The translations under genes were made by a program, and so were the position numbers. Of a DNA stretch of 64,000 nt, positions 1,711 through 21,362 are shown piece by piece. The stretch spans positions 11,128 to 75,127 of the forward strand of contig JANQFE010000024.1 of the NCBI GenBank assembly GCA_028278025.1, in the 5' to 3' direction. The stretch is from Thermodesulfobacteriota bacterium. GTDB taxonomy: Bacteria; Desulfobacterota; WTBG01; CAIYCZ01; CAIRTM01. Below the pieces are notes generated by a model. It worked only from the letters and a program-made list of their open reading frames with translations. It did no database searches and was not told where the DNA came from. How positions within the stretch are numbered: the stretch's first letter is position 1; every line of letters begins with the position of its first letter.

Positions 1711-3033
1711 TTAAGCAACACCAGCCTGCCTTTCAAAGTCCACCGGGGATTCCTTCAGGAAAAAAGCCGAGACGGCCGCGCAGAAGGCCAGCAACGACCA
1801 GAACAAAAATACCCTGCTGAAATCATATGCCCCGTCCGGCAGGCTGATGACCAGGTAGCCCGATATCAGAGGAGACACAAAGGAGCCGAACTGACCGATG
1901 CCGTTGGTGATGCCCATGGCCCGTCCCACAACCTCCTTGGGATAGCGCAGAGAGGGGAATGCCTGCATAACGCCCCAGGGAAAATTTACAAAAAATCCGC
2001 CAAACGCCAGCGCCAGCAGAAGGAGGCCGGTTTCGCCTTTGGGTACCTGCCCGATAAAGTAAAGGACCGGAATACAGCCCAGAAAACCGATTATGGAAAC
2101 GGCCTTCATGCGGCCCTGAAACAGTTTGTCGGCCACAAAGCCCCCCAGCCACATGGCAAAGCCGGCAATGAGGTAAGGCATGGCAGCGAAAAAGCCCATA
2201 GTTTTGACGTCCATGCCGTGCTGCTTAACGAGGAAAGTACTGATCCAGGTGGTCATCCCCCAGTAGATCATCAACAGAATGAAAAAATTCAGGGTAAAAA
2301 GGTAGTACTGTAAATCGGTCAAAAAAATCTTCGTGCTGAATTGTTTACCGTGGATTTCAGCCCCTTCGCCTACTGATGAGGTTATCAGTTCGTATTCATC
2401 CTGGGTCATTTTACCTTTCTGCAGCATTTCTCCGGGAACGTCGGCCATAAATTTTTGCAGCAGGTAGATGCCCACTAGACCGGGAACAGCCAGAACGAAA
2501 AAAACGGGGCGCCAGGCACCGTCAAAGATTTCAGCAGAAAGCCAGGTAACAACAATCGGAATGATGGCCGGACCGAACGCCCAGGTTGTCGTAAAGTATC
2601 CGTTGGCCTGCCCCTTTTCGTGGCGGGGAAACCAGTTGGCAATGGTCCGCACGGCCGGCACATAGTGGTGTCCTTCTCCGAGGGCCAGGCTGATGCGCAG
2701 GATAATAAACTGCCAGAAGGTCCGTACAAAACCGGTCAAAAAGGTAACGGCCGTAAACACCCATATGGCAATGTTCATGGTTTTTTTGGGGCCGATTTTA
2801 TCTGAAAGATAACCCGATGAGAGCTGAGCTACCGCATAACCGAAAAAGAAGATGGAGCCCAGCCAGCCGATTTCCACAGGGGTCAGGTTAAGGTCTTTCT
2901 GAATATAGGGCAGGAAAATCAGGACGCTGATACGGTCAAAGTAATTAATGATATAGAGCAGCCAGATAATAAATAAAATCGTCCAGCGATATCCCCAAAG
3001 TCGTTTTGTCTCCGACACTACGGTATTACCCAT
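1711..3033 (-). CDS. MFS transporter (anion:cation symporter-like)
   Basis: Twelve TM helices; MFS signature GYLSDKIGPKK; GAGGGAGG ribosome-binding site before the ATG at 3033 (the track start at 3054 is a TTG). Confidence 0.8.
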   Translation of the reverse strand: MGNTVVSETKRLWGYRWTILFIIWLLYIINYFDRISVLIFLPYIQKDLNLTPVEIGWLGSIFFFGYAVAQLSSGYLSDKIGPKKTMNIAIWVFTAVTFLTGFVRTFWQFIILRISLALGEGHHYVPAVRTIANWFPRHEKGQANGYFTTTWAFGPAIIPIVVTWLSAEIFDGAWRPVFFVLAVPGLVGIYLLQKFMADVPGEMLQKGKMTQDEYELITSSVGEGAEIHGKQFSTKIFLTDLQYYLFTLNFFILLMIYWGMTTWISTFLVKQHGMDVKTMGFFAAMPYLIAGFAMWLGGFVADKLFQGRMKAVSIIGFLGCIPVLYFIGQVPKGETGLLLLALAFGGFFVNFPWGVMQAFPSLRYPKEVVGRAMGITNGIGQFGSFVSPLISGYLVISLPDGAYDFSRVFLFWSLLAFCAAVSAFFLKESPVDFERQAGVA

Positions 3034-3657
3034 TAAAACCTCCCTCGGGCGCAATAGCCACTATTTATTTGTTAGAGACTATGATAACATTTAGTTGAAA
3101 GGAGCATCCTTGTCGGGCTAGAGCATGCTTCTGTTCTCTATAGCCCTTGAGCACTGCGAAGGCTGAGGTGGTAAGAGCAACTGCGGTGGTGCCAGCGATG
3201 GACGATATAGTTAATTCTGGATACTCCGGCGAGCACATAGCCGCATGTAATCTAACCGCATCAGCCTTCACAGTGCTCAACTGTGAGGCTACACTTTTTT
3301 GCAAAATGCTCTAAAAAACCCATAAATCTTTAAACATAATTTCTAAAACAAGGAAAAACTCTCTAATTCTCTAGAATCTATCATAGTCTCTACCCCTTAT
3401 CCATCTTTTTAACGATCCAATGTGGATTTCACAAAAGGAATTATTATGTATCACAAACCAGCTACTCCGGCAGCATCTGGATTCATCTCCACATAAAAAA
3501 CTCATTTTACATGCAATAGGTATTATTACTTATGAAAAAATGAGCTTTTATACGCATAGAAAATGCCCGGAAATACAAGTAAACAAATTAAAATAACATA
3601 CAGCCTGCACGACCGGCACTTAAGAAACTTTGTAGCAGTTATATTACTGTGAGAAAT

Positions 3658-5849: not shown

Positions 5850-6506
5850 CTAAGGGAATACAGCCACATATCCCTTGGAGATAGCATATTTAACAAGATC
5901 GGCAGTGTTTTTTAAATGTAGTTTGCCGAGCAGATTAGCACGGTGTCTTTCTACGGTTCGCACACTAATAAAAAGAAGTTCCGCAATCTCCTTGTTGCTT
6001 TTACCCTCGGCAATCAGTTTTAAAACCTCCCTCTCGCGGGGTGTGAGCGGCTCTGAAGGAAGTTGTGTGTTGCCTTGATACAGCTGAGATAAGTCCTCTG
6101 CCAGCTCCCCTGCGAGCAGACGAGTCACGTAAATACCGCCTTTTCTGATGGTCTCTATTGCAGCAAAAAGTTCAACATCAGAGTCCTCCTTCACCAGATA
6201 TCCCTGGGCCCCGGCTGAAATGCAATGATAGAGATATTCTTTGTTTCTGTGCATGGTCAGTATTAACACCTTTACATCAGGGTATAACATCCTTATTTCC
6301 CGCGTGGCTTCAATTCCCCGGAGGCTTGGCATTGAGATATCAAGGATAACCATGTCCGTTCCTGCTGTTTTCAAAAGGCTCATAAGTTCAAGACCGTCAC
6401 TTGCTTCTCCCGCCACCTCCAGACCGGGTATTTCTTCAATTATTTTTCGCATGCCGTGCCGAAAAATTACATGATCATCGGCAAGCACAACACGATACGG
6501 ATTCAT
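5850..6506 (-). CDS. Response regulator, NarL/FixJ family (REC + LuxR-type HTH)
   Basis: Receiver domain (VVLADDH...DMVILDISMP...LILT); C-terminal LuxR HTH (LTPREREVLKLIAEGKSNKEIA...SVRTVERHR); AGGAGG ribosome-binding site; 4-bp overlap with the upstream kinase. Confidence 0.9.
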   Translation of the reverse strand: MNPYRVVLADDHVIFRHGMRKIIEEIPGLEVAGEASDGLELMSLLKTAGTDMVILDISMPSLRGIEATREIRMLYPDVKVLILTMHRNKEYLYHCISAGAQGYLVKEDSDVELFAAIETIRKGGIYVTRLLAGELAEDLSQLYQGNTQLPSEPLTPREREVLKLIAEGKSNKEIAELLFISVRTVERHRANLLGKLHLKNTADLVKYAISKGYVAVFP

Positions 6507-8014
6507 ATACTGCCTCCTGTATTTTCTATAGGGACCGTTAGCGTAATTCTGGTCCCTCTATCCGGTTTGCTCCACACATCACACGTTCCACCGACCATGT
6601 ATGAACGCTCCCGCATGGTAGCTAACCCCATACCCTTATCGGCAGCCCCTCTGCTTATTAAACCATTCAGGTCAAACCCTTTGCCGTCGTCCTCTACCAC
6701 AAAGACTATCTGCCGGTTCTGCTGTTCCACGGTGATGAAGATATTTTTCGCCAGGGCATGTTTCACTATATTAGTAAGTGTCTCTTGAAAAATTCTGTAC
6801 AGGTTAATCTGGACATCCTCAGAGAAAAGGTGATCAATATCCTGCACGTCTAAAGAAATCTTGAAAGAATGCTGCTTGGCAAAATTTTCTACCTGCCACC
6901 GAAGGGCGGCGGTAAGACCAAGATCTTTCAGAACCGACGGGCTCAAATCTCTGGAGAGGCGGCGGACATTTTCGATGATTTCATCCACATATCTGCTTGT
7001 TTCCTGACAGTCTTTTATGAGTGCTGCCTGGTGTTCAGCAAGCTTTCTTGTAATCGATCTCAGTCGTAACTTTAAAAGAGCCAAATCTTGCCCCAGTTCA
7101 TCATGCAGCTCTATTGCCAGCCGTTTTCTTTCTTCCTCCTGTGCCTGCAAAAGCTTTGAGGACAAAACCCGCAGCCGTTCTTCTGATTTGCGCAATTCCA
7201 CCTCACGAGCCTGTAATGACTGCGTCATCGCATTGAAGGCTTGGGCAAGTTTTCCGATTTCATCATCAGTCTCAACGGGAAGCATGTCTACTGTGCTACC
7301 TTTTCCTAAAGCTTTCACACCATCTGTTAACCGGTTTAAAGGACGTGTTATCCCCCGTGATACAAGATAGGCAACTCCGGCACTAAGCAATAAAAAAAGT
7401 GTTCCTATGAGAATACTTTGAAACAATAAATCGTTGAGTTGTTTGCTTAATATTTTTTTATCAACAGTAATCCCGACAAAGCCTATTATACGGTTCCTTC
7501 TTTGCAGATACTCATCTCTGAAAAAAAGGGCTTCCTCCTGCATATAGTGTAAACCTGTCATTACCGGTTTCCAGAATTCAAATGTATCCCTATTCTCACG
7601 TAGCACAGAAGACCCGGCTTGTTTAAGATCTGCAAAAAGATGCCGGTTGTTTTTTCTATCTGCCGTTGTTTGTTTTTCCGGCCAATATGTACCTGGCCGT
7701 TCCAGCTTCTTAAGCACTTTTCCTTCCAGATTACAGATAATTACTTGCAGAACCGCGTCCTGTTGAAAAACTCCGTCAGCAGGGGCATTGAGCAGTTCCA
7801 AGTTTTCGGAAAACACACCAATACGTGAGTTGTGGGCCAGGATGCCTACAAGCAGGTGGCCTTTATGTATCAGACTGTCTGTCAGGGTTTTTCTCTGATT
7901 GTGGATAAAAAAAATTGAAAGGCAACAATAAATGGTGACAATAAAAACAGCAAGTTTAACAAAGACCTTTATAGCAAAATTTTCATTGAAGGCCTTCATG
8001 AAATTTAAATTCAT
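6503..8014 (-). CDS. Sensor histidine kinase, NarX/DegS-like (HAMP + HisKA_3 + HATPase_c)
   Basis: N-terminal TM, HAMP, HisKA_3 H-box (LAIELHDELGQDLALLKLRL), HATPase (VVEDDGKGF...GMGLATMRERSYMVGG); operonic with the response regulator. Confidence 0.85.
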   Translation of the reverse strand: MNLNFMKAFNENFAIKVFVKLAVFIVTIYCCLSIFFIHNQRKTLTDSLIHKGHLLVGILAHNSRIGVFSENLELLNAPADGVFQQDAVLQVIICNLEGKVLKKLERPGTYWPEKQTTADRKNNRHLFADLKQAGSSVLRENRDTFEFWKPVMTGLHYMQEEALFFRDEYLQRRNRIIGFVGITVDKKILSKQLNDLLFQSILIGTLFLLLSAGVAYLVSRGITRPLNRLTDGVKALGKGSTVDMLPVETDDEIGKLAQAFNAMTQSLQAREVELRKSEERLRVLSSKLLQAQEEERKRLAIELHDELGQDLALLKLRLRSITRKLAEHQAALIKDCQETSRYVDEIIENVRRLSRDLSPSVLKDLGLTAALRWQVENFAKQHSFKISLDVQDIDHLFSEDVQINLYRIFQETLTNIVKHALAKNIFITVEQQNRQIVFVVEDDGKGFDLNGLISRGAADKGMGLATMRERSYMVGGTCDVWSKPDRGTRITLTVPIENTGGSI

Positions 8015-9032
8015 TTATAGTCCCTCGTTTTACTATACGGGTTGTCCCCATTATTTTTTCATTAATCGGGACATTTAATTTATGAACAATCTTTTGGTTA
8101 ACTGATATAACAGCTTTTCGGGCAATTTGCTGATTAATGGAGACCACTGCCAAACGGGCGTCAGCCTGCGCAACCTTATGTGCTTTAATTCCTGAAAGTA
8201 TTGCTGCCGCCATCTCCCCTGCCTGAGCGCCCATATCAAAGGCGTCTATACCTATTGACATTAACGCTCCCAGCTCTACATACTTTTCTGAAAAAGCAAG
8301 AATAGGTATATTGTGTTCAAGGGAGAAAAGAAGCATAAACTCAATTGTCTCCGGCGTAATAAGGGTGGTATCGGGCAACATCCAAAAAACGTCTATTTTT
8401 TCTTTCATCTCCATGAGTGCTGAAGGGACAACGCCGGAGTTGTGAACTTGCCCTGCAACCAGCACAACACCGTTTATTGCCGCTGCAATGCGGGCTTTAT
8501 CTGCAAGATGACCTGTCTTATCCGGGTCATACAAAAGACCGATAGTTTTTATGTCAGGCAAAACATTAATAAGTGAAAATAATTGTCTTTCTATCGGTAT
8601 ATGCATACTGACACCGGTGATATTCTCTTCTTGAGAAAGGATGGTGTGGGGATTCAGTACCATAAGGTACACAACCGGTAGGTCTTTAATCCTTTTTACA
8701 AGGGAGAGGGCATCGGGACCTATGGCAAGAATAATATCGGGCCTCCTTGCCCTGAGCTCCTTGACCACATCGGCACCTCCCGATTCGGAGATAACCAGCC
8801 TGGAAACAACAGCGTTGCTGACACTCTTAAACCCTTTAAGGGCTTCCTCATATGGCGCTATCCTGCTGCTTTGAACGGCCACGATCTCCTGGCGGGCTTC
8901 CACCGACAGTGCCCAAAGAAGTATAATAAATATTATTGAAAAAAGAACCCTAGGTCTTGTATTCCTAGATTCGCACTTCCTCTTAATGTTTAACCTGAAA
9001 TCTGCTTTGAACGATATTTTCGCATTACCCAT
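7983..9032 (-). CDS. Periplasmic substrate-binding protein (ABC_sub_bind/PF04392-like) associated with the two-component system
   Basis: Signal peptide, periplasmic-binding-fold pattern, overlaps the start of the kinase gene; AAGGAGGG ribosome-binding site before the ATG at 9032. Confidence 0.65.
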   Translation of the reverse strand: MGNAKISFKADFRLNIKRKCESRNTRPRVLFSIIFIILLWALSVEARQEIVAVQSSRIAPYEEALKGFKSVSNAVVSRLVISESGGADVVKELRARRPDIILAIGPDALSLVKRIKDLPVVYLMVLNPHTILSQEENITGVSMHIPIERQLFSLINVLPDIKTIGLLYDPDKTGHLADKARIAAAINGVVLVAGQVHNSGVVPSALMEMKEKIDVFWMLPDTTLITPETIEFMLLFSLEHNIPILAFSEKYVELGALMSIGIDAFDMGAQAGEMAAAILSGIKAHKVAQADARLAVVSINQQIARKAVISVNQKIVHKLNVPINEKIMGTTRIVKRGTINEFKFHEGLQ

Positions 9033-9183
9033 CACACATTTCCCTCCTTTATTATTACATAATGTGTAGTTTCAATTTTGTATTTAGTATAAAAGACTGA
9101 TTTAATCGCTTGTATAAAAAAACTATATTTATTACTATACGGTAAGGCCCGCTTGCGTATAATTGTAAACAATAAAAGGTTAC

Positions 9184-11136
9184 ATGTACAGGGTTTTATT
9201 CAAAAAACGAACTTCGCTGGCAGGTTTTGCTTTAAGCATTATTTTTTTATGTCAATGTCAAAATGCCGGTGCTCAGTCTGAAGAAGAACTGAAAACGCTT
9301 CTTATGTTCTATAATGAAAAGGACCTTGTTATTTCACCCACCCGATCTCCAAAACCGGTATCCCTGGTTGCAGAAAATATCACCGTCATTACAGCTAAAG
9401 AGATAAAACAGCTTAATGCTCATACTGTTGCCGAAGCTCTCAACAGAATACCAGGCCTTTTTGTCGATTCTTTTGGTAATGATTTCGGCAGTGTTTCTTT
9501 TCTCAATATTCAGGGGTCCGAACCCAGGCATGTCCTGGTCCTGGTGGATGGAGTTCGCTGGAATTTTCTTTCAGACGGGTTTGCCGAGACTAATTCCATT
9601 CCCGTGGGCATTATCGAGCGGATTGAAATCATTAAAGGCCCTGCTTCATCAACCTGGGGCTCATCTCTGGGGGGTGTCGTTAATATTCTTACAAAACCTG
9701 CCGGTAAAGGCGTGAAGCCGACCGGTTTAATCCAGGCCTCCTACGGCAGAAGCAAATCGCAGGATTATCGGGCAGAGGTGGACGGCCGGGTTGGCTCTGT
9801 CGGGTATTACCTCCACGCAGCCCTGCAGGATTCCAGGGGCCTGAGATCTTCCAGAGCTTTTGAGAACGAAAGTCTTTATGCAAAATTCGACATACCGCTT
9901 TCACATTACGGCGACATCACCTTAAGCGCAGGGTATAGTGCCCCGCGCAATCATTTTGGGAAATTTCCAAGTGAAGGCTTGACTTCAAAGGGAACCATTC
10001 GTACTTTTTTCGCAACTGCTTCCCTGGATGTCCCGCTCACTAAAAAATTAGAGCTGCACATGTCACTGCATACAACCAGGCAGAAACACGCACAGGCCCA
10101 TGATGTCTTGGAAACCGGCTCTAAAGGCTCGTCAGGGGAACGTTATTTGGACAATATTCATGATGAAACAACAATCGGGGTCCGGGCTAAACTTGTCTGG
10201 AACCATAGGCAACACTTGATTGTGTGTGGAGCCGACTTTGATCACGGGCATCTTGAGCAGAAGCTTAAGGCCGGCCAAGCTCTTCAACTGGCCAGAGTTC
10301 CGGCAGTAAAGCGCTCCCACCCCCATATTGACCGGTGGGCCCTCTATGCTAATGATACGCTGAGCCTGGGCCGGTGGTCCTTCACCCCCGGCTTCAGGTA
10401 TGACCATGACGATATTACCGGCTCTTTCTTTAGTCCGAGCCTGGGTATTACCTGGAGACTTGGCGATAATACAATCTTTAAAGCTTCCATCGCCCGGGGG
10501 TTTTCCAGTCCTGCGCTCTCGTGGACATCGGCAGGGGGGCTGTTCCTGGAGCCGAATCCTTCTCTGGAACCGGAAACAGTGTGGTCATACCAGGCTGGAA
10601 TAGAATCAGCCGTGGCTGACTACCTGTGGCTAAAGGCCGTTGCTTTTCGCCATGATGTAAAAAATGCCATAACCGGGGAACGTTTTGCTACCGGACCGCC
10701 AACATTTAATGACCGCCTTGTGAATGGAGGGAAAACAAGACGGCAGGGCTTTGAGCTGGAGGCGGAAACACTGCCGCTGTATCATGTATCATTTCGGGCA
10801 GGAGTTTCCCTGGCACACATTACACCTTCCAATGAACGGGGCGCGCGTCACGTGTACACCTATAATATCGGGCTTGTATATGATGATATGCACTCGCTGA
10901 CTGTCCACCTTTCAGGCTATTATATATGGTGGAACTACGATTCCATATATCAGGCCGAGTACAAAAATTTTATCTGGGATATTAATCTCATCAAGACGGT
11001 TTTTACAAACAGAAAGTATTCCGGGGAATTTTTTTGTACAGCACACAACATTTTTAACGGCTCACAGTATACTCTGGGTGATTATAAGAATCCCGGTAAA
11101 TGGTTGGAAGTCGGGATGAGATTCATGTTTAACTAG
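9184..11136 (+). CDS. TonB-dependent outer-membrane receptor
   Basis: Signal peptide; plug domain with a TonB-box-like region; NRIPGLFVD...IERIEIIKGPASSTWGSSLGGVVNILTK is the classic TBDR plug motif; ~650 aa beta-barrel. Confidence 0.85.
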   Translation: MYRVLFKKRTSLAGFALSIIFLCQCQNAGAQSEEELKTLLMFYNEKDLVISPTRSPKPVSLVAENITVITAKEIKQLNAHTVAEALNRIPGLFVDSFGNDFGSVSFLNIQGSEPRHVLVLVDGVRWNFLSDGFAETNSIPVGIIERIEIIKGPASSTWGSSLGGVVNILTKPAGKGVKPTGLIQASYGRSKSQDYRAEVDGRVGSVGYYLHAALQDSRGLRSSRAFENESLYAKFDIPLSHYGDITLSAGYSAPRNHFGKFPSEGLTSKGTIRTFFATASLDVPLTKKLELHMSLHTTRQKHAQAHDVLETGSKGSSGERYLDNIHDETTIGVRAKLVWNHRQHLIVCGADFDHGHLEQKLKAGQALQLARVPAVKRSHPHIDRWALYANDTLSLGRWSFTPGFRYDHDDITGSFFSPSLGITWRLGDNTIFKASIARGFSSPALSWTSAGGLFLEPNPSLEPETVWSYQAGIESAVADYLWLKAVAFRHDVKNAITGERFATGPPTFNDRLVNGGKTRRQGFELEAETLPLYHVSFRAGVSLAHITPSNERGARHVYTYNIGLVYDDMHSLTVHLSGYYIWWNYDSIYQAEYKNFIWDINLIKTVFTNRKYSGEFFCTAHNIFNGSQYTLGDYKNPGKWLEVGMRFMFN

Positions 11137-11156
11137 AGCCTGTGAATAAGTAGTTT

Positions 11157-11190
11157 TACGTATAAAAAAATGCGTATTTTTACGCATAGA
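11157..11190. promoter_or_regulatory. Operator-like repeat array TACGTATA-N6-TGCGTAtttttACGCAtaga
   Basis: Palindrome TGCGT-N7-ACGCA plus a third half-site, ~130 bp upstream of the precursor ORF. Related TGCGTATA motifs occur at 9151 (TonB-dependent receptor promoter), 3549 (minus strand) and 45871. Confidence 0.3.
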
Positions 11191-11318
11191 CCTTGCAATA
11201 AAAAATTTAGTATGGTTAGTACCATCAAACAGGCAACTCTTGAACAAACAAATGCTGTACCCCTGCTCAATATGGGCGGGGATATCCTCATAATCATTAC
11301 ACAAGAAAGGAGACGTTT

Positions 11319-11441
11319 ATGAAGGAAAAGAAAAATGAATCCCAGGAAATCGTCGTCCTTGATGAAGGTATTGATATCAACAGTATAGACGACAGCCCGG
11401 ATGCTTGCTGTTATTCTTCAATAGGCCCCATAAGGGTTTAA
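11319..11441 (+). CDS. Candidate RiPP precursor peptide (40 aa: MKEKKNESQEIVVLDEGIDINSIDDSPDACCYSSIGPIRV)
   Basis: Missed by the ORF track because it is under 60 aa. AAGGAG ribosome-binding site 6 nt upstream; acidic leader-like N-terminus; C-terminal core with adjacent cysteines; a stem-loop with a U-run (possible attenuator) follows directly; ~50 nt upstream of an rSAM-SPASM maturase gene. Confidence 0.45.
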   Translation: MKEKKNESQEIVVLDEGIDINSIDDSPDACCYSSIGPIRV

Positions 11442-11450
11442 CCCTTCAGA

Positions 11451-11480
11451 ACAGAGGGCGATAAGGACCTCTGTTTTTTT
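11451..11480 (+). terminator. Intrinsic terminator/attenuator-like hairpin between the precursor ORF and the rSAM gene
   Basis: ACAGAGG-GCGATAAGGA-CCTCTGT followed by TTTTTTT. Confidence 0.5.
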
Positions 11481-11491
11481 ATCTTACCTAT

Positions 11492-13672
11492 ATGCAGTAT
11501 TCTCATTACCTTAAAGTATTTCCTTCCGAGGGAAATTCTGACCATCTACTGCTCTATTCGACAAAAAAGGCTTCATTGATTTCACTCAAGAAAGCAACCT
11601 ATAAAGCCGTCAAGGACGGCAAGCTGACCCTTGCTCATGAAGCCTTACTGACAAAACACGGCATGCTTGTTGAGGATCAACACAATGAAAAGCTCAGGAT
11701 GCTCGGTTTTATCAGTGAACGTAATGCTACAAGCACCTGTCTGCACATGACCGTCGTCTTAAACCTGGATTGCAACTTTGCCTGCCGCTACTGTTTTGAA
11801 GAAGAGGTGAAAGGCAAACATTACATGTCGGATGCAACAGTAAATCATCTGATACATTTCATCAAAGAGAAATTTACTGAAGATAAAAAATCTGTCGTCG
11901 TAGATTTTTATGGGGGGGAACCGCTGCTCAGTATTGAACATATAAAGACCATTTCCCGGGCAATAAATTGTTTGACTGAAACCCGGGGGGCTTCTTACAG
12001 ATTTATGCTTGTCACCAACGGTTCACTTTTTACAAGGCCGGTTGCAGAAGACCTGGTTCCCCTTGGGCTTGAAAGTGTAAAAGTAACTCTGGATGGTCCG
12101 GCTGAGGTCCACAACAAATCCCGACCTTTCAAATCGGGTGCCGGCAGCTTTAATACCATCATTCATAACATAACCCGGACCTGCAATCTGGTAAAAATCA
12201 TTATAGGAGGAAATTTCAATAAAAATACTTTTGCTAAGTTCCCGGCACTTCTTGATCATCTGGAAAAAAAGGGCCTTGCTCCTGATACATTAGCCAGTGT
12301 GAAGTTTGATCCGATAATGAAGAACCCTCAGTCTTCTGCAGCACCTTTTAGCTGTTTCGAAGGGTGCCTGTCCATTAATGAACCGTGGATTTCAAAGGCC
12401 GAGAAACTCTTGCGTGAAGAAATTTTAAAAAGAGGCTACAACACTCCCAAACCACGACCTATGCATTGTATGATAGAAACGTTACATTCCTATGTTGTGA
12501 ACTTTGATGGTGTTATCTATAAGTGCCCTGGGTTTATCGGAAAAAAGGACTTTGCAATTGGTGATGTTCATAAAGGCATACAAGATTATACATCCATTTA
12601 CAAAATAGGGTTCTGGAAAAACACAGAATGCGTTGAATGCACCTATCTGCCTATGTGCTATGGGGGCTGTAGGTACATGGCATTTATACGTGATGGGCAT
12701 ATAGACAACATTGATTGCAAAAAAGAATATCTTGACGGGTCCCTTGAAAGGCTAATCAAGCAGGACTTGAAATACAGAGAAAAGGCCGGCTGCAACATAT
12801 CAAATCCAGACAATAGTGATGTACTTATGATTAACGATCTGTTTGAACAGCTTGGTCGGGTGTGTGCCCATCATTTTCCAACCCAATTTAAACAGTTTAT
12901 CCCCCCTTCACTAGAGAGAATAATTAAATCCTATAATACTATTGATAACGTAATTCAAACCTATATATATGGTAACAGCGCCGCTACGGCAAACAACTCG
13001 AGTTTTGTTGAACGTGCATTTATGGCAGTTGCCTCCATACGCTATCTTGACGATTTTATCGATAAGGCCCTGTGGCCCCACATTCCCAAATGCAATCCGG
13101 AAAAGCTGTCCCGGTTGTTTGATACATTTTTACAAAAAGCATTGGATACTGCCAGAAAATTTGATCCTTTCATGCCGGAAACTATAATTGAGCTTCCTCG
13201 CCTGGAAATGTATCTGGCCTTGAATCCCGGTCAGGAAAACTTTGACCGGTTTTTTAAAAAATTATTTATATATAAATCTTATGATATGTTTTACACCTAT
13301 CAGATTATCCATGAGGATAGTCTTGAGAGTATTAATCATACCAGACTGGTTAGACTTGCCTTAATTGATTATATCCGTGATTTCTCGGCTGATCATATAG
13401 CAACAGATACCGATCTTAATCTGTACAAGTATATTCGCGATAATAATATTAATCCACGAAAATTCATTGCATATTTAATGGATTGTTACCGACAGGAAGA
13501 CCCGCGCGGTTACAGGAAGGCTAAGAAACGTGGTTTTATTGATAGTGCAAACGATAGCAGACCTGCTGATGATGAAAACAAAAAGGCCGCTACCTCTCTT
13601 TCTTTTCATGAATCATTCCCCCTGCTTTTTAATAGAGCTATATCTCTGCTGCAAAAGCTTTTACCCGACTAA
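11492..13672 (+). CDS. Radical SAM/SPASM-domain peptide-modifying enzyme with an N-terminal RRE-like domain and a ~300-aa C-terminal extension of unknown function
   Basis: CNFACRYC (Cx3Cx2C) radical SAM motif; C-terminal SPASM-like Cys cluster (CPGF...CVECTYLPMCYGGCRY); ~85 aa winged-helix-like N-terminus before the rSAM core (PqqD/RRE-like); residues ~430-726 have no recognisable motif. Confidence 0.8.
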   Translation: MQYSHYLKVFPSEGNSDHLLLYSTKKASLISLKKATYKAVKDGKLTLAHEALLTKHGMLVEDQHNEKLRMLGFISERNATSTCLHMTVVLNLDCNFACRYCFEEEVKGKHYMSDATVNHLIHFIKEKFTEDKKSVVVDFYGGEPLLSIEHIKTISRAINCLTETRGASYRFMLVTNGSLFTRPVAEDLVPLGLESVKVTLDGPAEVHNKSRPFKSGAGSFNTIIHNITRTCNLVKIIIGGNFNKNTFAKFPALLDHLEKKGLAPDTLASVKFDPIMKNPQSSAAPFSCFEGCLSINEPWISKAEKLLREEILKRGYNTPKPRPMHCMIETLHSYVVNFDGVIYKCPGFIGKKDFAIGDVHKGIQDYTSIYKIGFWKNTECVECTYLPMCYGGCRYMAFIRDGHIDNIDCKKEYLDGSLERLIKQDLKYREKAGCNISNPDNSDVLMINDLFEQLGRVCAHHFPTQFKQFIPPSLERIIKSYNTIDNVIQTYIYGNSAATANNSSFVERAFMAVASIRYLDDFIDKALWPHIPKCNPEKLSRLFDTFLQKALDTARKFDPFMPETIIELPRLEMYLALNPGQENFDRFFKKLFIYKSYDMFYTYQIIHEDSLESINHTRLVRLALIDYIRDFSADHIATDTDLNLYKYIRDNNINPRKFIAYLMDCYRQEDPRGYRKAKKRGFIDSANDSRPADDENKKAATSLSFHESFPLLFNRAISLLQKLLPD

Positions 13673-13735
13673 AAAACATTTTTCCCGTCAAGTTTATCAT
13701 CCAAGGGCTCCAATCAAAACATCTAATAGTGTGTC

Positions 13736-14485
13736 TCACGTTTTCCCCCGACAGACGCCCAACGTGCACAGCTGTTTTCTGACCGTTCCAAACCAGTCCG
13801 TGTTGGCCCGGGGGTTTGCCGGGCTGGGATGCAGGATAACACCGCTACGGATGTCACCTGCATCGACCGCAGGCCCGCAGGCCGCTTGGATCCGTTTCTC
13901 GGCAAAGCCGCCGACACCAATCACCCATCGGGGCTCCAAAAGACCGACAATTCGCTGCAGGTAGTTATCGCAGGCTGCAAACACACCTTCCTTTTCCCGG
14001 ACGGGAAGTTTATCGGGCGTGCGGTTGCGTCCGCTTTCTTCCATAAACACCAAAGGGCAGTAGTTGGCTATAAAAAAATCTTTAAAAAAAACATCCAGCT
14101 CACCAAACTGCTCGGCAATAGCTCCCCACAGGCGCTTGCCACTCACCTCGCTGCGCGTGCATGCAAACCCGAGTACCGGCCGCTTGGGATGCTCGTGCAC
14201 CGGTTTGTCAATCCGCTGCTCAATACCGAGCCAGCTTTGCACCATCTGCACCTCACCGAACGGCACACCGGTCTGGGCCATTCCATACGGACCGGGATTC
14301 ATGCCGAGCAGCAGGACCCTTTTTTTCGTATTCCCATAGCGCGTTACATACTCTTCGTGGGACCGGCGGGCATATTCCAGGGGGTTATAGACATGCGTGA
14401 CGGGCAGTTCAAAGCGAAGCGGGGCAAGCTCTCTGCACAGCCTTCTGCCGGCTGCATTAATTTGTGAAGAAATGGATCTTGTCAT
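13736..14485 (-). CDS. Uracil-DNA glycosylase, SMUG1 family
   Basis: LLLGMNPGPYGMAQTGVPFG matches the SMUG1 active-site motif (GMNPGPxGMxQTGVPFG). Confidence 0.75.
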   Translation of the reverse strand: MTRSISSQINAAGRRLCRELAPLRFELPVTHVYNPLEYARRSHEEYVTRYGNTKKRVLLLGMNPGPYGMAQTGVPFGEVQMVQSWLGIEQRIDKPVHEHPKRPVLGFACTRSEVSGKRLWGAIAEQFGELDVFFKDFFIANYCPLVFMEESGRNRTPDKLPVREKEGVFAACDNYLQRIVGLLEPRWVIGVGGFAEKRIQAACGPAVDAGDIRSGVILHPSPANPRANTDWFGTVRKQLCTLGVCRGKT

Positions 14486-14516
14486 AGCTCATCAGGGTAA
14501 ATAATGCCGGGGCTTA

Positions 14517-14568
14517 AAAAAAGAGTATCCCATTATAGCAATGCAATGGAATACCCTTTTTTCTGTTC
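14517..14568. terminator. Bidirectional intrinsic terminator downstream of csp
   Basis: Imperfect ~12-bp hairpin flanked by an A-run and a T-run (aaaaaaagagtatcccatt...aatggaataccctttttttc). Confidence 0.45.
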
Positions 14569-14579
14569 AAAACAACCGG

Positions 14580-14780
14580 TTAATCTATGGTAACATTAAC
14601 CGCTGCAGGACCTTTTTTCCCTTGCTCTATCTCAAAGGAAACCCGGTCGCCTTCATTGAGTGTTTTGAATCCGGTTGATTGGATTGCTGAATAATGCACA
14701 AACACATCCGGACCTTCTGCTTGCTCAATGAATCCGTAGCCCTTGCTGGAATTAAACCATTTCACCGTTCCATTAGCCAT
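14580..14780 (-). CDS. Cold-shock protein, CspA family
   Basis: [15 protein letters not shown]...VFVHYSAI: the RNP1/RNP2 motifs of a cold-shock domain. Confidence 0.9.
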
Positions 14781-15062
14781 CGTGGCATCCTCCTTTCATA
14801 AAAAATTCTTATGGTTCCAAACTTCAGGCCGCCACTTTGTCAAATGGAATCTTTCCTGCAGAACGAAACCACGCCCGTCAATAAGGACGTACTTTTATAG
14901 TTTTCGGTTATGTTTATGATCATACTATAAAAATTTTGATAAAACAAGCTATTCTAAAACAAAAAAGGGGTATTGTTCTGCCTTTTGAACGGTTCCGCCA
15001 TTGACTTTTATAACAGCCAACGGTAGACTCTTTGACCCGTTTCTCTGAACAAAAGGAATGTT

Positions 15063-20432: not shown

Positions 20433-21362
20433 CTAACTCTCCAGCCCGCGTTTGATATCAGCGATGTCAATGTCAAGCAGGCAGGCAATTGCAGCAGAGC
20501 CTAAAACTGTCTGCAGCGTACAATCTTCGGGCAGTGTCATTGTAATATCCACAGTCTTTTTCCTGACCTTCAGGGTAAAGGTGGTGCGGCCGTCTTTTTG
20601 CCGGCGGACATTTTCGGCACATATATCCCCTTTCTTAAGGCCAAAGGTCAGCACACGGGCTTTGGTCACTTTTTTCAGCCCTGCCGATTGGGGATTATCG
20701 CTGTTCAGTATGGCGGTGTTGTTTTTATGCAGGTTTCTCAGAAGCTCGGCCTGCTCTTTACGGTCCTGCTTTTGAGTTCCGGTAATAAGAACCGCGGTGG
20801 GTTCACAGATGTCCGCGAGACGTTTAAGCTCACCGGGCTGATCCATTTCCAGGGCAAACAGCACAGCCTCATGTTCAGCATTTAACTTCATGAGTGTCAA
20901 GGGCAGTTCCTGCAGCCTGTTGCCGCTTAGCGGATTGGTAAGCACCCGGCGGTGCTCCCCGATAATTGAGTCTGCAATGCGGCCTGTTTCTGACACTCCA
21001 CTGCTTCCCGTGACAATCAAAAGCTCGGGGGTGAATTTATAGCGCCACAGGCTGGCAAGATTACCCAGGGCCGTCAGGGTATCATCCACTTCTATCAGGA
21101 TTTTACGTTTATATTTTTTCTGCAGGCCCGCGAGCACTCCGCTGTCACTGCCGACAAGGGTTGCCACCGCACCCTTGCTGAGGGCATCTTCTATAAAACG
21201 GTGTCCGTCCCTTCGGGTTCCTTTAAGCGGTACAAAGAGGCAGTTGGACGTTGTCTTGCGTGAATCAATACAGACAGACTCGATCATGGTCAGCCCAATC
21301 CCGCCGGCAAAGCGTCCTCCGGTAGCCTTTATGATTTCATTGGGTATTATTCTGATATGCAT
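20433..21362 (-). CDS. Mur ligase family protein (MurF-like N-terminal and central domains; P-loop lysine missing, C-terminal domain absent)
   Basis: IDSRKTTSNCLFVPLKGTRRDGHRFIEDA aligns with the MurF N-domain. The P-loop position reads VTGSSGVSETG rather than TGSxGKT, and the 309-aa protein lacks the C-terminal Mur ligase domain. Confidence 0.5.
   Translation of the reverse strand: MHIRIIPNEIIKATGGRFAGGIGLTMIESVCIDSRKTTSNCLFVPLKGTRRDGHRFIEDALSKGAVATLVGSDSGVLAGLQKKYKRKILIEVDDTLTALGNLASLWRYKFTPELLIVTGSSGVSETGRIADSIIGEHRRVLTNPLSGNRLQELPLTLMKLNAEHEAVLFALEMDQPGELKRLADICEPTAVLITGTQKQDRKEQAELLRNLHKNNTAILNSDNPQSAGLKKVTKARVLTFGLKKGDICAENVRRQKDGRTTFTLKVRKKTVDITMTLPEDCTLQTVLGSAAIACLLDIDIADIKRGLES

Follow-up and report, generated by a model that had tools for sequence, protein, structure and literature searches.

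A geopeptide-type locus in a Thermodesulfobacteriota bacterium with a radical SAM/SPASM maturase fused to a rare, possibly peptide-modifying C-terminal domain

A 64,000-nucleotide (nt) stretch of DNA from a Thermodesulfobacteriota bacterium (contig JANQFE010000024.1; this whole stretch is the window, and all coordinates use its numbering) carries a 40-codon open reading frame (ORF) followed closely by a gene for a 726-amino-acid (aa) radical S-adenosylmethionine (SAM) enzyme with a SPASM region. What does this enzyme act upon, and what is the purpose of its additional C-terminal part? The first question can be answered with some confidence: the locus probably makes a ribosomally made peptide with post-translational modifications (RiPP) of the geopeptide type, from three core genes, one for a TonB-dependent receptor, one for a precursor peptide and one for a radical SAM/SPASM maturase, the last of these carrying a rare extra C-terminal domain that is probably catalytic. 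The precursor is conserved, the enzyme is a bona fide member of the geopeptide radical SAM/SPASM family, the extra domain fused to it (here domain X) is itself conserved, and the receptor is co-inherited. New here are the fusion to the rare domain X, the modular way in which X is distributed, the terpenoid-synthase-like fold predicted for it and the linkage to the receptor.

The maturase gene (11492..13672, plus strand, as are all features below unless noted) encodes a geopeptide-type radical SAM/SPASM part (aa 1-429) and domain X (aa 430-726), the latter without a family match. Residues 1-429 align with the whole of the NCBIfam model TIGR04280, 'geopeptide radical SAM maturase' (positions 1-428 of 428; 547.5 bits versus a cutoff of 400, E = 2e-164), whose type in NCBIfam is 'hypothetical equivalog', and judged by its sequence the protein is a full-length, above-cutoff member of this family. 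The radical SAM motif CNFACRYC (C94, C98 and C101; aa 94-101, 11771..11794) was found by a regular expression on the translation (PF04055, 44.9 bits). The SPASM auxiliary-cluster region (12467..12718; TIGR04085, 51.7 bits versus a cutoff of 27) has its seven-Cys pattern complete, as C326-x13-G-x4-C345, C380-x2-C-x5-C-x3-C393 (with C383 and C389 between) and C409. Thus, the original prediction, which had been made from the letters alone, was right about the motif and about a SPASM cysteine cluster, and miscounted the residues ahead of the motif, which number 93 and not ~85. It had also called the cluster a candidate undescribed one; given that the enzyme exceeds the TIGR04280 cutoff, and that NCBI names its homologues accordingly, including a fused 723-aa protein that carries the geopeptide maturase name alone, that part was mistaken.

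The next-best families (CefB, TIGR04463, Clo7bot, PapB, SCIFF and CcpM) each comprise maturases for Cys-rich peptides, and with every one of them the score falls far short of the cutoff. No equivalog cutoff was reached for PapB (127 bits versus 340), the SCIFF maturase (102.5 versus 425), CcpM (94.8 versus 500) or RumMC (48 versus 720), nor for DynA (NF041298, 68.7 versus 450), scored as a test for a darobactin/dynobactin-type enzyme. An anaerobic sulfatase-maturating enzyme (anSME) or other non-peptide radical SAM enzyme was rejected, since the anSME model TIGR03942 scores 70.6 bits versus a cutoff of 349 and the near families are all peptide maturases, in agreement with the original assignment to peptide maturation. 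The nearest solved structure to the radical SAM half is that of the SCIFF maturase CteB (5WGG, E = 9e-18). This half has 2184 homologues at E <= 1e-40, and 'geopeptide radical SAM maturase' is the specific name wherever the source gives them one. Among the best 120 (56-63% identity), 119 are 430-469 aa long and a single one is fused to X; the window enzyme measures 726 aa instead of the usual ~430 because domain X is fused to it.

The small ORF upstream (11319..11441) translates to MKEKKNESQEIVVLDEGIDINSIDDSPDACCYSSIGPIRV. Its ATG follows 5 nt behind a Shine-Dalgarno sequence (AAAGGAGA, 11306..11313), and 50 nt separate its end from the start of the maturase gene, which confirms the 40-codon ORF, ribosome-binding site and ~50-nt spacing described originally. 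The gene was also called by the gene caller of a public collection, and an identical 40-aa protein is on record. The peptide displays the geopeptide pattern, a leader of the form (I/V)(I/V)(L/I)D-x-G-(I/V/L) followed by CC near the C-terminus. The leader motif IVVLDEGID (aa 11-19, 11349..11375), presumed to be the recognition element, aligns with positions 1-9 of the precursor model TIGR04229 and is kept in all family peptides, and the Cys30-Cys31 pair of the core (11406..11411) lies 9 residues from the C-terminus.

For comparison we used close genomic relatives and three loci carrying fused enzymes. Every locus with upstream DNA to inspect has, just ahead of the enzyme gene, an ORF of 27-45 aa that encodes the same leader and, 7-12 residues before the C-terminus, a CC pair; such peptides precede the enzyme in at least 10 independent loci (L007-L013, L043, L044 and L050). 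In an alignment of 10 sequences from these loci (A5), D15, G17, C30 and C31 do not vary, and an almost invariant Arg is found close to the C-terminus. The small ORF is thereby confirmed as more than chance, and a chance ORF was rejected on the same grounds. Homologous peptides used as tblastn queries matched the window at 11319..11438 alone (E 3e-7 to 2e-3), and these searches revealed no second precursor copy in the window. A profile search yielded 30 further family peptides, one of which is the 40-mer of the window itself, from an NCBI contig of 179 kb; family copies without the CC pair (P0205 and P0213) appear decayed.

Three observations weigh against this picture of the locus. The TIGR04229 model ('geopeptide') gives the window peptide 14.3 bits versus a cutoff of 30, with only leader positions 1-9 aligned; a 186-aa half of a major facilitator superfamily (MFS) transporter that follows the radical SAM gene in other loci is absent in the window; and the literature searched contains no paper on geopeptide, TIGR04280 or TIGR04229 and no experimentally characterized member of the family, so that all of the chemistry proposed here, like the thioether or C-C cross-linking suggested originally, is by analogy. 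The peptides of related loci also fall under the TIGR04229 cutoff (11-29.6 bits), and from its residues the window peptide is best classed as a divergent geopeptide, a sub-threshold relative of TIGR04229. Of the original statement that neither the peptide nor the C-terminal fusion matches a known family, the half concerning the C-terminal domain stands (no match in Pfam or NCBIfam), and the half concerning the peptide does not.

Between the precursor and maturase genes lies a terminator- or attenuator-like hairpin with a U-run (11448..11480; dG -13.6 kcal/mol, z = -2.0 versus shuffled sequences), which agrees with the 7-bp stem-loop first reported. The 7-bp core, ACAGAGG/CCTCTGT with G/C, extends to 10 pairs (11448..11477), with T7 at 11474..11480; a simple terminator scan overlooked it because the loop is longer than 8 nt. 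Strong hairpins are found at the equivalent position 3' of the precursor gene in L009, L011, L012, L013 and L050, making six loci with the window, and given this recurrence the attenuator-like layout is a family feature. The hairpin would act as a terminator or attenuator.

The same layout could be taken to mean that the 40-codon ORF is a mere regulatory upstream ORF or leader for attenuation, with the enzyme acting on some other substrate, for example a sulfatase or a small molecule: the ORF is short, a terminator-like hairpin follows it, and the peptide misses the TIGR04229 cutoff. We consider this highly improbable, as the leader motif, the CC pair and the near-terminal Arg are kept across loci whose DNA has diverged, and as the enzyme, far below the anSME cutoff, has only peptide maturases for near families. 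Relatives also carry tandem arrays of the gene, with nine identical copies at a period of ~166 nt in L012 (2324-3741) and four copies, one of them decayed, in L007 (3059-3616); arrays of up to nine copies are as expected for a substrate gene. A purely regulatory ORF is therefore largely refuted by the conserved amino-acid sequence and the arrays. The initial view of precursor, hairpin and radical SAM/SPASM maturase as a RiPP-type unit is supported, with the small ORF conserved in syntenic loci, and the functional guess made for the locus was largely right.

How the enzyme would find its substrate is suggested by its first 85 residues (11492..11746), a putative peptide-recognition domain by similarity to the N-terminus of P0003, with which it is 32% identical (E = 8e-11). 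P0003 is a standalone protein in which this module is joined directly to domain X without a radical SAM core, an architecture that provides the sole support for reading the module as a PqqD-type RiPP recognition element (RRE). Two sequence searches gave that reading no support: 18 N-terminal segments had no match to PF05402 (PqqD) at E <= 10, and neither the 85 residues alone nor a profile of them matched any sequence in the PDB. The module may be an RRE.

Domain X, the C-terminal 297 aa (aa 430-726, 12779..13669), belongs to an unannotated family and matches nothing in Pfam or NCBIfam even at E <= 10; its profile likewise found no match among PDB sequences. It is rare, with 10 matches among 5.8 billion proteins and, by profile search, 55 clusters among 1.84 billion representatives. 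Across 43 domain X sequences R88, D91, D95, E143, K166 and D212 (domain X numbering) are invariant, F93, W99, Q152, F155, D197, R200 and D201 are nearly so, and the motifs IRYxD(D/N)F(I/L)DxxLWP, LPxxE, QxxFD, KSxD, DxxRDF and DF(N/D)L recur. The IRYxD(D/N)F(I/L)D signature, which includes R88, D91 and D95, is represented in the window protein by R517-Y-L-D520-D-F-I-D524 (13040..13063); the first and last Asp of D(D/N)F(I/L)D are invariant. A second acidic region (DxxRD...D) occurs ~105-120 residues further on, in the window D626-YIR-D630 to D639-T-D641-LNLYKYIRDN (13367..13444), and contains D197, R200, D201 and D212. An AlphaFold model from the 43-sequence alignment (pLDDT 87.9, pTM 0.87) is confident, is all-alpha and appears to resemble the class I terpenoid-synthase fold, a moderate similarity that is not proof of it; Foldseek against the PDB gave nothing significant.

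The domain is found in several architectures. It is fused to a radical SAM core in the window protein, P0011, P0012 and P0107; in P0002-P0007 (372-379 aa) it follows an N-terminus of ~70 aa homologous to the maturase's own N-terminal module; and in ~40 proteins of 280-330 aa it stands free. No precursor was found beside the module-plus-X genes on their short contigs (L002-L005). One further fusion, P0013 (718 aa), has its CxxxCxxC motif replaced (…LMNSNKKTESD…) and keeps domain X along with the SPASM cysteines, which suggests that X is kept where radical SAM activity is lost. The DNA of the domain (12800-13399) is the most AT-rich of the neighborhood (GC 0.38 versus 0.45-0.52 in the flanks), which weakly suggests separate acquisition of the fused part.

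What might domain X do? It could be no enzyme at all, serving instead to hold the peptide or to link the maturase with the membrane export machinery, as a helical scaffold, a chaperone, or an immunity or docking domain. No enzyme family is detectably related to the domain in sequence, its fold similarity is moderate at most, and the exporter gene of other loci is missing from the window, all of which would suit such a role. However, six charged residues stay invariant across 43 sequences that are otherwise ~22% identical per column, the signature in a diverged family of an active or ligand site and not of a scaffold, and X is also found as a cytoplasmic protein of its own in unrelated settings. 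We therefore rate a non-enzymatic role as quite improbable.

Taken together, the invariant R, D, D, E, K and D and the terpenoid-synthase-like fold are best fitted by an isoprenoid-type activity, and we tentatively propose that domain X may alkylate or prenylate the peptide through Mg2+-dependent ionization of a diphosphate donor. There are precedents for such chemistry on peptides: the isoprenoid synthase superfamily includes the RiPP prenyltransferases ComQ and PalQ (PMC10853753), and in the RiPP prenyltransferase-cyclase fusions ChrPC and NctPC, terpene cyclization can follow prenylation (PMC13290415, PMC10853753). Drimentine biosynthesis uses a phytoene-synthase-like prenyltransferase, DmtC1, together with a membrane cyclase, DmtA1 (PMC6173783).

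One locus with a fusion, L044, encodes a Pyr4-like transmembrane terpene cyclase (2741-3391; PF25129, 98.8 bits versus a cutoff of 27) 65 nt downstream of the radical SAM-X gene. L044 is syntenic with L007, L008 and L012, where the maturase is unfused (downstream PHP protein 70-73% identical, UvrD helicase 47-49%), and of these four only L044 has the X fusion and the Pyr4-like cyclase, both together; a BrnT/BrnA pair is also inserted there.

Several results argue against an isoprenoid-type activity. None of the 43 domain X members matched any Pfam family at E <= 10, whether polyprenyl, squalene/phytoene or terpene synthase, and hhalign of X with Escherichia coli IspA gave no match (probability 0.1). 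Neither the window nor L050 contains an isoprenoid gene or a Pyr4-like cyclase. The characterized RiPP prenyltransferases of the isoprenoid synthase superfamily all target Trp (PMC13290415); the cores of the fused-type loci, CCY, CCW, CCY and CCS, share no aromatic acceptor. Finally, standalone X lies between purC and purB in three purine operons, a setting that does not suggest prenylation. A literature search combining RiPP, radical SAM, prenyltransferase and terpene cyclase returned nothing.

The purine operons raise another explanation, that domain X handles a purine nucleotide, a nucleoside or a phosphoribosyl compound and not an isoprenoid. Its task might be to clear away 5'-deoxyadenosine, the by-product of the radical SAM reaction, to provide or control a cofactor, or to place a nucleotide-derived group on the peptide. 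Free-standing X sits between purC and purB in three independent operons (L006:1016-1879, L045:2450-3385 and L047:7001-7909; also in L048), with the order purL-purQ-purK-purE-purM-purC-X-purB in L047 and the purC-X-purB core shared by L006 and L045, and one of these homologues comes from a Patescibacteria genome. Each radical SAM turnover sets a purine nucleoside free. An Mg2+-phosphate or diphosphate ligand would suit the invariant Asp, Glu, Lys and Arg equally well whether X binds an isoprenoid or a purine compound. On the other hand, the structural neighbors of X in the model appear to be isoprenoid-fold enzymes, not nucleotide enzymes; two other standalone members lie outside purine operons in unrelated contexts; for the fused clade, the module-plus-X proteins and the Pyr4-type neighbor in L044 speak for a role with peptides or isoprenoids; and the purine-operon proteins, at 24-36% identity to the window domain, may differ from it in function. 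A purine-related function is thus rather unlikely for the window domain. In Patescibacteria-like genomes, the purC-X-purB genes (purC encoding SAICAR synthase, purB adenylosuccinate lyase) could mark an unknown or alternative pathway step.

Extended to its full length, the proposal of peptide prenylation would make X the founder of a new family of isoprenoid-synthase-fold enzymes, guided by the peptide-recognition module. In the fusions its target for alkylation or prenylation would be the geopeptide core, for instance one of the two invariant Cys, before or after radical SAM cross-linking, with Pyr4-type cyclization added in some lineages (L044), and the window product would be a terpenoid-RiPP hybrid that is secreted and re-imported via its own receptor. 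As a complete scenario this is speculative, and we think it unlikely to hold in every part.

For the locus as a whole, the following sequence of events may be envisaged. The precursor would be translated from its strong ribosome-binding site, and the hairpin with its U-run would stop some of the transcripts before the enzyme gene, itself without an obvious Shine-Dalgarno sequence, and so lower enzyme expression relative to that of the precursor. The N-terminal module of ~85 aa would bind the leader I-V-V-L-D-E-G-I-D. The radical SAM core (C94/C98/C101) would cleave SAM and, with two SPASM auxiliary clusters, cross-link Cys30-Cys31 to downstream core residues, most likely as thioethers by analogy, because the nearest relatives all mature Cys-rich peptides. 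Domain X might then perform a second, Mg2+-dependent, peptide-directed step such as prenylation. Once exported, the product, acting as a metal chelator (metallophore) or a signal, would be taken back in by the neighboring receptor.

The receptor, a 650-aa TonB-dependent outer-membrane protein (9184..11136; Pfam Plug and TonB_dep_Rec_b-barrel), ends just upstream of the peptide gene. Over its full length it is 52-54% identical to the receptor encoded directly upstream of the peptide gene or genes in L050, L008, L012 and L011; receptor fragments occupy this position in L007 and L009, and the L013 receptor is 32% identical and divergently placed. Since receptor identity is similar to enzyme identity, receptor, peptide and enzyme travel together, and the presence of an orthologous receptor upstream in most loci points to re-uptake of the product. 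This synteny suggests that the product is secreted and re-imported via the receptor as a metal carrier or signal. A literature search on TonB, radical SAM and metallophore found nothing relevant.

Divergent from the receptor gene (5850..9035, minus strand) are genes for a periplasmic binding protein (PF04392), a HAMP/HisKA_3 histidine kinase and a LuxR-type response regulator, assigned with Pfam. A PF04392 protein is also encoded beside the receptor or radical SAM gene in L013 (37% identity), L011 (28%) and L008 (a fragment), and the window, L011, L013 and L008 all pair it with a HAMP histidine kinase. The association of these genes with the geopeptide locus is suggestive, and the set may be a sensor of the imported peptide. 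The half-MFS mentioned above lies directly 3' of the maturase in L009 (2475-3041), L014 (766-1326) and L050 (5214-5774); its copies are 56-81% identical, and it is likely an exporter.

Between the receptor stop (11136) and the peptide gene there is a perfect palindrome, ATGCGTA-TTTT-TACGCAT (11170-11187), with an A-run before it. A terminator score is obtained for the minus strand alone, on which no gene ends here; the palindrome may be a weak or bidirectional terminator of the receptor gene. No sigma-70 promoter for the peptide gene was found near 11157-11318, where counts were not above those of shuffled sequences, and an Rfam scan of 9000..15000 gave no match at E <= 1. Convergent with the maturase gene is one for a uracil-DNA glycosylase (UDG) superfamily protein (13736-14485, minus strand; PF03167, 46.6 bits, far under the cutoffs for family 4 UDG). 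Farther away, a 309-aa ORF (20433-21362, minus strand) has the Mur ligase catalytic and middle domains without the C-terminal domain, and is shorter than expected of a Mur ligase.

Among anaerobic bacteria that reduce sulfate or metals, geopeptide loci are common, with more than 2000 enzyme clusters, and they are named in annotation with no published chemistry or biology found. The pairing with a receptor offers a concrete way into their physiological role. If X does modify the peptide, it would represent a new class of tailoring enzyme for RiPPs and possibly a new route to peptide-terpenoid hybrids.

Compared with known systems, the window is closest to the annotated geopeptide system (TIGR04229 plus TIGR04280), as enzyme residues 1-429 match the whole model, a peptide with an LDEG-type leader and a CC pair is encoded directly upstream, and the hosts are likewise anaerobes (Thermodesulfobacteriota, Desulfobacterales and Nitrospirota metagenome-assembled genomes). 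It departs from that system in its enzyme of 726 aa versus ~430, which lacks the single-module architecture, and in a peptide with a longer leader-to-CC spacer and a sub-cutoff score. Methanobactin-type RiPP metallophores have a dedicated TonB-dependent importer and are matured by MbnBC; like the window they pair a small modified peptide with a TonB-dependent receptor encoded beside it, suggesting secretion and re-uptake, whereas the maturation enzymes, MbnBC versus a radical SAM/SPASM protein, are unrelated, and metal binding by geopeptides is purely hypothetical. SCIFF/ranthipeptide and sactipeptide maturases such as CteB and PapB share with the window enzyme the radical SAM core, the seven-Cys SPASM region, an N-terminal extension and a short Cys-containing peptide encoded next door; the window differs in equivalog scores far under the cutoffs, in having only two, adjacent, Cys residues and in its coupling to a TonB-dependent receptor.

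For domain X, the closest parallels are ComQ, PalQ and the P domain of ChrPC. X differs from these in having no Pfam match, no hhalign match to IspA and a radical SAM fusion unlike any known member, and in that their class targets Trp (PMC13290415), which not all fused-type geopeptide cores contain. It appears to share with them an all-alpha domain, a first Asp-rich motif and a peptide-directed system, and the prenylation-then-cyclization of ChrPC and NctPC is paralleled by X and the Pyr4-like cyclase in L044 (PMC13290415, PMC10853753). The DmtC1/DmtA1 pair acts on a tRNA-derived diketopiperazine (PMC6173783), not a ribosomal peptide, and the corresponding pairing is seen in one X locus and not in the window; in that locus, L044, the likeness lies in the pairing of X, as a candidate prenyltransferase of predicted class I fold, with a small integral-membrane terpene cyclase (PMC6173783).

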